DNA of 26,844 bases, filler included, from an uncultured virus (IMG/VR IMGVR_UViG_2061766007_000212) (taxonomy: Duplodnaviria > Heunggongvirae > Uroviricota > Caudoviricetes). It is 2 parts of one record of this genome, joined end to end, with 100 filler letters (N's around TTAATTAATTAA, not from the genome) between each part and the next. Parts side by side here need not be neighbours in the genome. Positions count along the whole stretch, not along the records: positions 12,330 to 26,844 come from IMGVR_UViG_2061766007_000212; 1 more part is not named here. One strand, written 5' to 3'. Under the pieces are notes generated by a model that saw nothing but the letters and a program-made list of their open reading frames with translations, did not search any database and was not told the DNA's origin. Both the position numbers and the translations under genes were made by a program. Shown here piece after piece: positions 15,424-18,865 of the stretch. Each line of letters starts with the position of its first letter. Within the stretch, counting starts at the first letter, position 1.

Positions 15424-16089
15424 TCACCCCCGTTTTCGTGTCAGCAGGTAAAAGAAGGGAGTATCCAGAGCCGCGAGGATGAACTTCAGAACATACTGTC
15501 CGATCATCATTCCCGCCAGGCTCGGCCACATCGCCTTGTCAAACAGCCATCCGAAACCAAGACCGAAAGCGATGCCGATAAAAAGAACGGTGTCGATAAT
15601 CTGGCTGGTCATTGTGCTGGCATTGTTCCAGATCCACCGTCCGCCTTCTGTGCTGCCGTGCTTTGCGATGAACTTATCCCGGATTTTATGGAAGAAGAAC
15701 ACATCCCAGCTCTGGGAAGCGAAATATGCCACCATAGAGCCGATAACGAATATCCAGTTCTGACCCAGCAGACGCTCGTATGCAGCCTGTGCTTCCGGAT
15801 CTGCTGCCGGGAGATATTGTGTCATGACGATCAGGAGCGTCGCCACCACCTGTCCGACGAATCCCCATCGAACTGTCCGGTTTGCCTCTTTCTTTCCCCA
15901 GATTTCACCGATAACATCGGTTGCCAGGAATGTGATCGCATAGCAGAGAGCCGCGCCTGGGAGTGTCAGCGGAGATCCGAAAAGATTGATGCCGGTTGCA
16001 AACAGTTTTGCCGTTACTACATTGGAGATAACCAGGGCAACAACGAATACCATGTTGATTCCGATCAGGTTTGAATTGGTTTTTTTCAT
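15424..16089 (-). CDS. yhhQ: Queuosine-precursor transporter (VUT/YhhQ), allele B
   Basis: Same VUT motifs as 8476-9192. Confidence 0.9.
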   Translation of the reverse strand: MKKTNSNLIGINMVFVVALVISNVVTAKLFATGINLFGSPLTLPGAALCYAITFLATDVIGEIWGKKEANRTVRWGFVGQVVATLLIVMTQYLPAADPEAQAAYERLLGQNWIFVIGSMVAYFASQSWDVFFFHKIRDKFIAKHGSTEGGRWIWNNASTMTSQIIDTVLFIGIAFGLGFGWLFDKAMWPSLAGMMIGQYVLKFILAALDTPFFYLLTRKRG

Positions 16090-16113: not shown

Positions 16114-16791
16114 TTATTGCACCGGGTCTTTTAACCCGTTTGCTTCGAATGCTTTTTGTCGATCAATACAGGTTCCGCATTTTCCGCAGGGATGCTCCCC
16201 GCCTTCATAGCAAGACCATGTGAGATCATAGGGTACGCCGAGCATGGTTCCTTCATAAACAATGTCGGCTTTGGTTTTTCTGATGAACGGGGCATGGACT
16301 TCCACCTGTCCATCTGTTCCGTAGATTATCGCCCGGTTGATTGCCGCCGTGAACTCCGGCGTACAATCCGGATACGCATTCCCGGCCGCATCGTCTGCAT
16401 GAGCCCCGTAGTAGATTTCCTCTGCTCCGATGCTGACCGCGATACTGGCGGCAGCGGAGAGCATCAGCCCGTTTCTGAACGGAACGTATGTACTGACCGG
16501 TTTTCCGGGATCGTTTTTCTGCTGCTCTGCATAACTTCCTTCAGGAATAGCGTTTTTTGAGCTTTTAAGCAGGCTACAATCGCTTTTGCTGAAGATCGTG
16601 GATAAATCCAGCTCCATCAGTTCAACCCGGTAATATCGCGCAATATTCCGCGCAGATTGCATCTCCCTGTCGTGCCTCTGGCCATAATACATGTTGACAG
16701 CCAGCACATCCTCTGCATGATGCTTTTTCAGAGCAAAAGCCAGGCAGGTTGAAGAGTCCAGCCCGCCGGATAAAAGAACTACTGCCTTCAT
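16114..16791 (-). CDS. queC: 7-cyano-7-deazaguanine (preQ0) synthase QueC, complete (225 aa)
   Basis: SGGLDS PP-loop, YGQRH, TYVPFRN, YPDC, WSCY, CGKCGTC; ATGA coupling to the upstream gene. Confidence 0.95.
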   Translation of the reverse strand: MKAVVLLSGGLDSSTCLAFALKKHHAEDVLAVNMYYGQRHDREMQSARNIARYYRVELMELDLSTIFSKSDCSLLKSSKNAIPEGSYAEQQKNDPGKPVSTYVPFRNGLMLSAAASIAVSIGAEEIYYGAHADDAAGNAYPDCTPEFTAAINRAIIYGTDGQVEVHAPFIRKTKADIVYEGTMLGVPYDLTWSCYEGGEHPCGKCGTCIDRQKAFEANGLKDPVQ

Positions 16792-16940
16792 AAATATTTC
16801 TCCGCATACTGCTGATATTTCAGCCATTCTGTAAAGTTGTTCAGCGCGGCTTCCCGGCTGGCTCCGATCCGGTGACCTTTCGGAGCATCTTTTTTCCGCA
16901 TGGTCTTTCCGTCGAAGTAATACAGGAAACCGAACCTGTT
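16788..16940 (-). CDS. TGT/DpdA-like protein, C-terminal fragment (another allele)
   Basis: [14 protein letters not shown]…[13 protein letters not shown], copy of 17270-17422. Confidence 0.8.
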   Translation of the reverse strand, partial: NRFGFLYYFDGKTMRKKDAPKGHRIGASREAALNNFTEWLKYQQYAEKYL

Positions 16941-16950
16941 NNNNNNNNNN

Positions 16951-17256
16951 CGTACTGACCGGTTTCCCTGGGTCGTTTTTCTGCTGTTCTGCGTAGCTTC
17001 CTTCAGGAATAGCGTTTTTTGAGCTTTTAAGCAGGCTACAATCGCTTTTGCTGAAGATCGTGGATAAATCCAACTCCATCAGTTCAACCCGGTAATATCG
17101 TGCAATATCCCGCGCAGATTGCATCTCCCTGTCGTGCCGCTGACCGTAATACATATTCACCGCCAGCACATCTTCTGCATGATGCTTTTTCAATGCAACA
17201 GCCAGGCAGGTGGAAGAATCCAGCCCGCCGGATAAAAGAACTACTGCCTTTTTCAT
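16951..17256 (-). CDS. queC: QueC, N-terminal fragment (another allele)
   Basis: [14 protein letters not shown]…YGQRH; AAGGAAGG RBS. Confidence 0.88.
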
Positions 17257-17269
17257 TTCTTGACCTTCC

Positions 17270-18380
17270 TTATAAGTATTTCTCCGCATACTGCTGATAT
17301 TTCAGCCATTCAGTAAAATTATTCAGAGCGGCTTCCCTGCTTGCTCCGATCCGGTGACCTGCCGGAGCATCCTTTTTCCGCATGGTCTTTCCGTCGAAGT
17401 AATACAGGAAACCGAACCTGTTNNNNNNNNNNCTCATCTGCGTAAAAGAATGATTCCAGAATGTACGGGCGGTATTCCGTAACAGTTTTGTCATACCCCC
17501 CCATTCCGCCAGGGCCAGACACCGGCGAGNNNNNNNNNNGGTTGTCCAGGCTGTCGAGTCCACGCTGTCAAAATGACAGGTTTTTAACCAGTCCAACGCT
17601 GTGAATCCCAACCCGTGCACCTTAGCCCCTCGTTTATGAGCTTCGCCAATGAGCGCAGGAAACGCGCCGTATTTCTCTTTCCTGATCTCACCGCTGACAA
17701 TACCGCCGATCGCCACGTACCCGTACTCATCACACATCCTTTTATATTCATCCAAACCTCTTGAAAGATGCCAGACCGGGATGCATGGCCGGTTCGTCAG
17801 CTTTTCCAGTTTTGACCTGAACTGTTTTACCCGGTCGTATCCGACCACAACGTCGATGTCCAGTTCAAAGTACTTCTGAACATTGTTCCGGTTGATGAAA
17901 TCCGCATATCGTTCGATGTATTCGTCCCAATTCGGAGAGCCGCCCTTGCCTTGCATGAACGTGAACGCTCCGCTGTCGAGCAGGAAATCCCCGAAGTGCG
18001 GGATCAGCCGTTCTGTGTCTTCGTCCGCATAAAAAAAAGACTCCAGAATGTAAGGGCGATATTCATTAACAGTTTTGTCATACCCCCCCATTCCGCCAGG
18101 GCCAGACACCGGCGAGGTATAACTGCATTTGACCTCCGTTGACAGGATTTTGTGCATCCCGTTCTGTCCTGCAAGATAAATCTGCATTTTTCGTTTTTTT
18201 TTACGTTCTCGAGGAGTTCGTCGTGAATCCAATGCCTTGACTCCCCCCCCCGCCAGGAAAATTTCCATTGCATCCTCCGTGGCGTTGGTAAACGCTTGAC
18301 CTTCTGCCATTCTTCGGCAGGTTTCTTTCCAGAGCGGTTTCAGGTTGCCTGATACCCCCCACCGCCATATATAGGATCAT
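17270..18380 (-). CDS. Compact tRNA-guanine-transglycosylase-fold (DpdA-like) protein with frameshift-segmented, repeated N-terminal modules; interrupted by N spacers
   Basis: LLDSGAF, ELDID, IPVWH, VAIGG, VHGLG, DSVDS match TGT-family catalytic motifs; adjacent to queC and yhhQ; true start ambiguous (18380, 18268, 18187 or 18128). Confidence 0.72.
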
Positions 18381-18865
18381 GGCGTAAACCACTCTCCGCA
18401 GTGCGGGCATTTGATTTGCTTCGGCTCTTTGCCCTCCTTCTCTGGAGCAGGTGCAAACAGATCGTCAAGGCTGTCTGCATCCGGGAAAACGAAGTTCAGC
18501 TCTTCGAAGTCCTGGCCCTCAATAGCCAGGGCGGCGCACTCTTCCTCCAACGTCTGGAAGTCCCAGGCCGAGAGTTCAGCAGTTCGATTGTGTCTGATCA
18601 TGTATTCCCGCCGCTGTTTATCTGACAGGTGATCCAGCCGAATGCAGGGAACCTCATCAAGCCCGAGTTCCGTTGCTGCAATCTGCCGCCCGTGTCCCTC
18701 GACTATTACGTTGTCTTCGCCCCAGATACCGATTGGATCATTGAAGCCGTCTTCAAGGATTGACTTTTTGATCGCTTCGATATCATCCGGCGCATGACGG
18801 CGAGCGTTCTTTTCGTATGGTTTCAGATCACCCGGCGGCAGATATACAATCTGCAGTTTTTCCAT
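18377..18865 (-). CDS. ParB/Srx-like N-terminal domain protein with C-terminal Zn ribbon
   Basis: LKPYEKNARRH…SI…GFNDPI…IVEGHGR..AA..LG; CPHCG at the C-terminus. Confidence 0.85.
   Translation of the reverse strand: MEKLQIVYLPPGDLKPYEKNARRHAPDDIEAIKKSILEDGFNDPIGIWGEDNVIVEGHGRQIAATELGLDEVPCIRLDHLSDKQRREYMIRHNRTAELSAWDFQTLEEECAALAIEGQDFEELNFVFPDADSLDDLFAPAPEKEGKEPKQIKCPHCGEWFTP

Follow-up and report, generated by a model that had tools for sequence, protein, structure and literature searches.

The 5' leader of a dpdA-family gene of an uncultured tailed phage (IMG/VR IMGVR_UViG_2061766007_000212; Duplodnaviria, Heunggongvirae, Uroviricota, Caudoviricetes) is, judging by its sequence and that of its relatives, probably a multi-tract contingency locus, in which the lengths of homopolymeric tracts would set which of several start modules is in frame with the enzyme core and so give ON, OFF or alternative N-terminal forms. 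The stretch of DNA analyzed (the window) is 26,844 nt in length, filler included, and joins two parts of one record of this genome. It is a patchwork scaffold with 32 runs of N, in which allele fragments have been placed between 10-N gaps. On its minus strand, a ParB-like gene, a 300-nt leader, the DpdA-like core, queC and a Vut_1-family transporter gene are found in this order. An earlier note on this DNA had described the leader as a stack of four alternative MxxYLAG N-termini, linked by slippery homopolymers whose length would choose the strand and loop fused to the transglycosylase, and this interpretation is partly supported by the analysis presented here. The leader and the gene that it precedes are composed of the following features, listed in order of transcription.

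18269..18380, minus strand: module 1 (type A), ATG at 18380 overlapping the stop of the ParB-like gene as ATGA, head MILYMA, tract GGTG6 ending at 18355-18360, tail ending in TEDA
18203..18268, minus strand: module 2 (type B), ATG at 18268 with GGAGG 5-6 nt upstream, head MEIFLA (MEIFLAGG), tract G9 at 18243-18251
18194..18202, minus strand: A9 tract, after the tail of module 2 and ahead of module 3
18129..18187, minus strand: module 3 (type C), ATG at 18187 (MQIYLAGQ) with neither GGAGG nor another Shine-Dalgarno-like word ahead, in the core frame
18078..18128, minus strand: module 4 (type D), ATG at 18128 with GGAGG 5-6 nt upstream, tract G7 at 18083-18089 followed by TGA, out of the core frame
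17540..18082, minus strand: DpdA-like core (YDKTV...TAWTT), phrog_887 at E 1e-44, cut by the 10-N gap 17530-17539
17433..17529, minus strand: second-allele fragment (end of module 4 and start of core), also with G7, an assembly artefact between two 10-N gaps
17270..17422, minus strand: 3' end of the dpdA-like gene (NRFGF...AEKYL), which aligns with the C-termini of homologues

All four starts and four tracts of the earlier description were seen, as were the overlap with the ParB-like stop, the two GGAGG words and the TGA that module 4 meets directly after G7. The tails of modules 1 and 2 were likewise found to be out of frame with their own ATG. The module 1 tract, which is G8 (in frame) or G9 in relatives, has the length of G9 in the window with one G exchanged for T, and the module 2 tail, out of frame at the G9 of the window, is in frame when this tract is G8. 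Modules 2 and 3 share the frame of the core within an open reading frame (ORF) at 17270..18310 that includes two 10-N gaps and the inserted second-allele fragment. The proximal module of the window is thus predicted to be OFF at G7, with the core reached from modules 2 and 3. The A9 and G9 tracts are the sole runs of at least 9 bases in the whole window, and two of its five G/C runs of at least 7 (in 24,751 non-N bases) fall inside the 303-nt module stretch.

The same anatomy was found to be common in the family. A word-indexed protein search gave 5773 homologues at E ≤ 1e-10, and the best 120 were examined. Among these 120, the commonest length was 248 amino acids with the start MxLYLAGVxPWR..GGYD, that is, the module 4 type in frame. 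A single module stood directly before the core in 42 of the 120, at least two strand words or an extension were present in 30, the last strand word was more than 40 amino acids ahead of the core in 19, no strand word was detected in 28, and one lacked the anchor. Gene callers give many different and often wrong N-termini for this family (47 of the 120 best clusters are without an in-frame proximal strand). Among the near-identical protein clusters P0001, P0002, P0005 and P0007 (93-98% core identity), all three frames of the module 4 region are represented, with tract lengths deduced, and at least eight tail types recur behind the shared head (e.g., GQNGxHxI, VAPWRxGGYD, SPHTLTRF, NTIFPxYIAP, GHINGKYQQ and IQGKxKGFV).

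DNA was compared for 80 of 318 viral loci and 34 genome loci (numbered L012 and so on; WIN is the window sequence), of which 77 of 114, including two window rows, carried a PYILESF-type anchor; a second anchor, DSGAF, gave 66 usable viral and 29 usable genome loci. Many of these loci had modules stacked in more than one frame, their G runs coinciding precisely with the Gly-Gly codons after LAG or before YD, which bears out the expectation that MxxYLAG modules with poly-G tracts would be conserved across the family. In the 75 loci counted, G runs of at least 7 numbered 121 in 22,911 bp of leader versus 13 in the remaining 217,075 bp (about 88-fold denser), and no C runs of at least 7 were found in the leaders. 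Since Gly-Gly of the core is spelled GGGGGG in 3 of 118 cases yet such runs are so strongly enriched in leaders, the G runs are kept there and not avoided. A leader tract was present in 50 of the 66 viral and 16 of the 29 genome loci. By record title, the genome loci belong to Bacillota, Bacteroidota, Actinomycetota, Pseudomonadota and others, and the feature is widespread among several bacterial phyla; tract-bearing isolate genomes include Alistipes putredinis, Collinsella sp. An7 and a Muribaculaceae strain. A repeat tract at the 5' end of the coding region is, by these counts, retained beyond chance, as in contingency loci. Seven loci of Bacteroidota and Collinsella prophages (L105, L108, L110, L111, L112, L117 and L118) have tract-free inner modules in one frame and a G9-G11 tract farther upstream, within an extra outer module; in one of these, Alistipes putredinis DSM 17216 (L110), a whole 353-amino-acid ORF is open through the G tract.

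Frame breaks were located almost wholly at long tracts. Of 35 module A tails, 11 were off the frame set by their ATG, each with a G run of at least 6, and the nine with a run of 5 or fewer were all in frame; a run of G8 was in frame in 14/16 and G9 in 0/6. For module B, there were three out-of-frame cases among 10: two carried G9, and in the third the tract was interrupted. For D-type proximal modules, 17 were in frame and 18 out when the tract was 7 or longer, compared to 10 in and 2 out when it was 6 or shorter, and all nine with G9 were in frame. Among the 66 loci with a leader of at least 330 nt, the proximal module was in frame in 36, only an upstream module was joined to the core through an open path in 8 (including the window), no start was in frame in 19, some of which are misses of the regular expression, and no module was recognized by this expression in 3. 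Module heads occupied at least two frames in 33/66 viral and 7/29 genome loci, and three frames in 7 and 1, respectively. Changes in length thereby shift the gene in and out of frame, with starts in different frames upstream of the tract.

Different tract lengths were also found to bring different start modules into the core frame, as had been proposed, on comparison of the window with L020 and L028. In the window lineage, the three phases of the proximal tract join the core to module 4, module 3 or the module 2 tail, and in L028 (G8/G8/G8) one ORF extends from module 1 through the core. When the proximal tract was altered in silico by -1, 0 or +1, there were 0, 1, 2 and 3 productive phases in 3, 21, 14 and 2 of 40 loci, respectively. 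A separate arrangement was noted in L031, L057, L060 and L072 (about 75 nt before the anchor), in which a KFLAG strand (ATGAAAATTTCTGG-type) occurs right after a TGA in the core frame, with its ATG one base out of frame, no long G tract and no ATG start left in the core frame.

Tract lengths were found to be hypervariable between close relatives. Seven pairs of loci that share more than half of their 21-mers were compared for substitutions and indels. L066 and L067 had no substitutions in 1000 nt and one single-G indel, L050 and L051 had one substitution and one GGG indel, and L024 and L025 had three substitutions and two single-G indels, both within tracts; the indels of these three closest differing pairs were therefore all inside tracts (4/4). 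One further pair was identical across 637 aligned bases. Among the more distant pairs, L057/L060 had 9 substitutions and no indel. L054/L055 differed by 32 substitutions, an indel of 3 nt and a 6-nt change within an AG repeat, and L019/L021 by 18 substitutions, two indels in tracts, one indel of a single T not in a long run and one indel of 78 nt. Between conserved flanks, the proximal tract spans G5 to G11. The tracts of the window and its nearest relatives compare as follows.

WIN: module 1 GGTG6; module 2 G9; proximal tract G7
L020: module 1 G9; module 2 G9; proximal tract G8
L028: module 1 G8; module 2 G8; proximal tract G8
L012: module 1 G8; module 2 interrupted; modules 3-4 replaced by another cassette

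Variation in tract length between near-identical relatives and between alleles, together with the near restriction of frame breaks to long tracts, agrees with the proposal of the earlier note. Two further kinds of leader variation were observed. The 78-nt indel between L019 and L021 corresponds precisely to a single module (MKIFLAGENGKKRIIPFIHGGGFSLT-type) with similar ATGAA heads on either side, so modules are gained or lost as cassettes; L012 likewise carries another proximal cassette where the window has modules 3 and 4. AG dinucleotide repeats (ERERER-like) occur in the leaders of L054/L055, L069, L085 and L102 as a second kind of simple repeat, with the 6-nt difference between L054 and L055 noted above.

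Homopolymers are error-prone on some sequencing platforms, and the lengths recorded here might be sequencing or assembly errors in a poor scaffold, a reading to which the patchwork nature of the window, with its N runs and inserted allele fragments, lends itself. Twenty public runs were found, all in the form of assembled contigs, which drop rare variants. In two runs of one sample, possibly the source of the window itself, a module 2 allele identical to that of the window was detected with G9 at a depth of 20.4 and 16.3, and a second module 2 allele with 10 other letters was detected with G8 at a depth of 17 and 11.9. The contig over the proximal tract in these two runs was that of the second allele, with G7. 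The proximal tract was G8 in a run of another study, and in a third study it was G9 (depth 50.1 of 58) beside a G7 contig. A scan of metagenome contigs by flank pattern gave three matches only (G8, G8 and G7), two of which are apparently L020 and L028, and RNA runs contained just 0.04-0.07 of the sampled words of the stretch. Window tract lengths thus recur in independently built contigs, and differing lengths are found in contigs of other studies and in a further 66 loci that come from many assemblies, isolate genomes included. Such recurring and differing lengths exclude a simple consensus error, and the tracts are enriched in the leader only and on one strand only. An artefact is hardly credible.

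The enzyme cores and the modules themselves were found to be conserved irrespective of frame. The core ORF was full length (223-229 codons) in 19/19 loci without an in-frame module start and in the 7/7 related loci in which only an upstream module was in frame, and the core frame had one stop in 10,620 codons. Substitutions in the modules, counted in their own frames against L012, L020 and L028, were 15/9/41 at codon positions 1/2/3 (three non-independent comparisons), and this third-position bias held even for those tails that are off their own ATG in the window; for module 3 against L020, the counts were 0/1/6. By this pattern, each module is under purifying selection in its own frame. The earlier note had read the same bias from allele differences. 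The bias stands on comparison with relatives; inside the window, the fragment at 17433-17529 is the only second allele of this region, and a second allele of the module 2 region was seen solely in public contigs.

These results also bear on whether the stack is an ordinary N-terminal repeat domain of strand-helix units, with poly-G as a mutational liability of Gly-Gly codons and out-of-frame copies as decaying prophage genes that undergo no adaptive switching. Tract-free relatives with two to three modules in one frame would be expected of such a domain, as would the 47 of 120 best protein clusters without a proximal strand word in frame (28 have no such word, and in 19 the last one is more than 40 amino acids ahead of the core), and many loci are from prophage-bearing metagenome-assembled genomes. 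By contrast, decay is at odds with cores that are intact in all 26 related loci with the proximal module out of frame and with a third-position bias that persists in out-of-frame modules. Mutational liability is similarly difficult to reconcile with the rarity of GGGGGG at other Gly-Gly positions (3/118) compared to the ~88-fold leader enrichment of G runs, or with the confinement of indels to tracts (4/4) in the three closest differing pairs. We regard a plain repeat domain as highly improbable.

The tracts could also act as sites of transcriptional slippage or ribosomal frameshifting, such that a mixture of frames is always made and length differences in the DNA are tolerated noise; the enzyme, perhaps as a full multi-module protein, would then be produced at any DNA tract length. 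A programmed site of this type is expected to be fixed in length and direction, whereas the same sites range here from G5 to G11 with all three phases occupied, and lengths that keep the frame predominate (G8 at module A, 14/16; G9 at the proximal tract, 9/9). Constitutive recoding would be aided by the G7-G9 and A9 runs, which are perfect re-pairing sites, and it would account for the same out-of-frame G7 in both diverged window alleles, the three-G difference by which L050 and L051 keep the same out-of-frame phase, the invariance of A9 in the five sequences seen and the natural tract-free relatives that encode all modules in one frame. On balance, it is considered improbable.

In the contingency model favored here, the enzyme core would need an N-terminal MxxYLAG strand, and the leader would hold a stack of starts able to provide it. 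Each start has an ATG and a conserved tail of its own and, in many cases, a Shine-Dalgarno-like word as well; they lie in different frames, parted by G runs that code for the Gly-Gly that follows the strand or precedes the core. At replication, slipped-strand mispairing would alter the length of these runs far faster than point mutation, presumably in a manner that is reversible within a lineage, and each change would reset which start, if any, shares the core frame. Three outcomes would follow: the canonical 248-amino-acid form from the proximal module; longer forms from an upstream module, which may also be active and in which the intervening modules would be read in or out of their own frames; and an OFF state in which no start is productive.

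The likely benefit of such a switch would be bet-hedging, as 7-deazaguanine blocks restriction enzymes but draws defence glycosylases. In the available text of one preprint (bioRxiv 10.1101/2025.10.29.685425), Dag glycosylases are described as targeting 7-deazaguanine DNA, with escape mutants that lose dpdA function; the preQ0-modified phage HK243 escaped by a dpdA point mutation that abolished modification, under a heading of 'evolutionary trade-off'. Bet-hedging fits this published trade-off in that modification shields from restriction yet attracts glycosylases that are escaped by loss of dpdA. The modification is a major phage counter-defence, and hosts own enzymes that attack it. If the dpdA gene is indeed designed for frequent switching, it would reveal that phages of gut and rumen bacteria hedge between modified and unmodified states.

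Several observations weigh against the contingency model. The A9 tract was constant in all five sequences in which it was seen (WIN, L012, L020, L028 and L013); since it is constant in these five, slippage at A9 may still take place. The two alleles of module 2 found in one sample differ by 10 substitutions over 167 nt and so represent different strains. As 21 of the 40 loci altered in silico have a single productive phase, for many members the stack at present adds nothing beyond ON/OFF. Tract-free relatives (Alistipes, Prevotella and Oscillospiraceae) have two to three modules in a single frame, so the modules would also function as parts of one protein, for which a switch model has no need. 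The module and state counts are from crude regular expressions applied to phylogenetically related loci. Shine-Dalgarno-like words were detected ahead of 49/131 distinct module ATGs versus 83/827 control core ATGs (odds ratio 5.4), which speaks for the alternative starts, but the controls differ in base composition from the purine-rich leader. The near-openness of the window leader in three frames was not general among relatives, with 2.4, 4.7 and 4.7 stops per 100 codons in leaders compared to 3.9 and 7.3 in the off-frames of the core, and the openness of alternative frames in proximal modules is largely explained by amino acid sequence.

Selection for an open frame +2 in the proximal module was rejected on this last basis, synonymous resampling accounting fully for the result (33/34 open, as expected). 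For frame +1 there was a weak excess of openness only (24 modules with stops versus 28.5 expected; 6 of 1000 resamples as low), which is given no weight because the sequences are related. Formation of G-quadruplexes by the tracts was set aside, as the tracts are about 50-110 nt apart.

The structural part of the proposal, that MxxYLAG is the first strand of the enzyme barrel, was examined with an AlphaFold2 model of P0095, a natural three-module protein relative, built from a 59-row alignment (mean predicted local distance difference test score, pLDDT, 79.6). The model had a fold like the (beta/alpha)8 barrel of tRNA-guanine transglycosylases (TGTs). Its top Foldseek matches were archaeosine and bacterial TGTs (E 2e-5 to 6e-4), and by VIA-align the DpdA structure 7ui4 ranked first (Z 15.5, root-mean-square deviation 3.5, 240 residues aligned), tied with TGTs at Z 14.6-15.5. 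A strand was modelled at residues 2-6, within the outermost module, at a pLDDT of about 73, and the structural alignments start at model residue 1 versus residue 4 of 7ui4 and residue 40 of Zymomonas mobilis TGT (range ends only), the last of which we take to be the beginning of the first barrel strand. Since the strand is at residues 2-6 and the alignments begin at residue 1, it is plausible that MxxYLAG is the first barrel strand. This support extends to the outermost module, whereas modules 2 and 3 of P0095 were mostly below a pLDDT of 50 (segments 41-66 and 68-70). In a model of the 181-amino-acid core fragment, the first strands were coil (pLDDT 56-71). In the 59-sequence alignment, L110, D111, S112, G113 and A114 were invariant and F115 nearly so, forming the motif LDSGAF, of which the Asp of DSG is presumably catalytic as in TGT.

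A bolder reading is that the stack selects among protein cassettes, with combinations of tract lengths fusing different strand-loop cassettes to one core and altering more than ON/OFF. Each module would then be an alternative first barrel strand with its following loop and helix. In a TIM barrel, the catalytic face is built from the loops that lead from strand to helix, and the first loop-helix is, we assume, also a dimer contact in TGT; exchange of this element might affect specificity for DNA sequence or base, the oligomer state or the sensitivity to a host inhibitor. This reading is offered tentatively and as unlikely; if true, it would represent heritable and reversible exchange of a structural element of an enzyme by homopolymer slippage.

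The contingency locus proposed here resembles several known systems in part. In the lic loci of Haemophilus influenzae, a repeat tract is preceded by multiple ATGs that are not all in one frame, and repeat length picks which start joins the coding region, giving more than two expression states. Their repeats are tetranucleotides in a bacterial surface-structure gene and their alternative starts add few residues, whereas in the dpdA leader each start carries its own version of a structural strand, followed by a conserved tail that differs between starts, and the tracts are arranged in series. PolyG tracts of Campylobacter phages are reportedly within receptor-binding protein genes, where they affect host recognition. 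Like the dpdA tracts they are poly-G in phage genes and are said to give phenotypic subpopulations; unlike the dpdA locus, they reportedly involve neither a DNA-modification gene nor a stack of alternative starts. The hypermutability of these tracts is cited to Sorensen et al. (Cell Rep 2021) in the accessible part of PMC12823448.

The nearest precedent is the T2 agt contingency locus. According to the portion available of the preprint by Gomez, Barrick and Waters (bioRxiv 10.1101/2025.10.21.683753), agt of T2, a phage DNA-modification gene, acts as a contingency locus, as does T4 rIIA; simple-sequence-repeat frameshifts were found in 10/15 TgvAB-resistant agt mutants, and their reversion was ~1000-fold faster than that of a point mutant. 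The likeness to dpdA is in a phage DNA-modification gene with mononucleotide repeats, in which ±1 changes switch modification off and on, and in the stated benefit of escape from opposing host defences. By contrast, agt has A runs in the gene body and plain ON/OFF switching demonstrated by experiment, while the dpdA locus is known from sequence alone, has up to three G tracts in a 5' leader with stacked starts in different frames, and encodes a 7-deazaguanine transglycosylase.

Phase-variable host enzymes such as Campylobacter Type IIG (PMC4889913) and Moraxella ModM (PMC6902483) share, in the parts of these sources at hand, the switching of a DNA-modifying enzyme by simple sequence repeats. 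These bacterial methyltransferases and restriction-modification systems are host genes with ON/OFF switching or exchange of target-recognition domains, whereas the dpdA locus is a phage or prophage transglycosylase gene in which the N-terminal strand would be exchanged. Beyond precedent, as far as sequences indicate, are the serial tracts, the starts in different frames with the same strand and different tails, and the cassette-like gain and loss of modules; serial tracts combined with alternative starts that each encode the same strand would be unusual for any contingency locus. No earlier description of such a tract and start stack for DpdA was found in the literature on DpdA, 7-deazaguanine or preQ0 with phase variation, homopolymers or frameshift, and the words frameshift, truncated and homopolymer were absent from the available portions of the phage DpdA papers PMC6884629 and PMC10516641.

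The identity of the enzyme was derived from its core and from its neighbours, of which the following were assigned on the minus strand of the window.

18377..18865, minus strand: ParB-like gene with a zinc-ribbon-like CPHCGEWF tail, phrog_620 at E 2e-44
16114..16788, minus strand: queC, preQ0 synthase gene, downstream of dpdA, Pfam QueC at E 1e-60
15424..16089, minus strand: Vut_1-family transporter gene, Pfam Vut_1 at E 6e-46

An SSB gene and other phage-type genes come after the transporter gene. The Vut_1 family is, we assume, the YhhQ family. YhhQ is named as a preQ0 transporter in the available part of a phage DpdA paper (PMC6884629). The core matched phrog_887, 'queuine tRNA-ribosyltransferase', at E 1e-44; no Pfam family, including TGT, was matched at E ≤ 0.1, a profile search of PDB sequences gave no TGT or DpdA and a single chance-level match (E 0.4), and blastn of the region against phage records gave no match. 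Likeness to the DpdA preQ0 insertase 7ui4 (PMC10164549, as far as its available text goes) includes the TGT-like barrel, the LDSGAF motif and the neighbouring queC and preQ0-type transporter genes; the window family differs in a core protein of ~248 amino acids compared to 413 for 7ui4 and in the absence of a Pfam TGT match. The closest cultured relative, Fusobacterium phage phiFN37 (43.7% identity), has the same order of a ParB-like gene, an annotated queuine tRNA-ribosyltransferase gene and then a queuosine-precursor transporter gene. Based on this gene order, including queC and the transporter and matched in phiFN37, the window region is read as a phage or prophage DpdA-type module that would place a 7-deazaguanine base into DNA. 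The phiFN37 gene has one simple start and no tract; homologues of this simple type, which the earlier note had named as evidence that would count against its proposal, were found only among distant relatives.

The ParB-like gene may be a fixed partner of this DpdA family. In most related loci, as in phiFN37, the gene immediately ahead of the dpdA-like one is a ParB-like gene with a CPHCGEWF-type zinc ribbon, and its stop often overlaps the ATG of the first module (loci L014-L095; L129, 923-1408). The match of the window gene to Pfam ParB_N was at E 0.0019 only, under the family cut-off.

Downstream of the leader, the scaffold interleaves two alleles over 16790-17540, with a second dpdA 3' end (~16790-16940) and a partial second queC (~16951-17255) between 10-N gaps; as a result of this interleaving, a 391-amino-acid ORF at 16114..17289 is a false fusion. 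Within the core, a T8 run at 18031-18038 encodes SFFY and is T7 in several relatives by synonymous change, with no change of frame seen.

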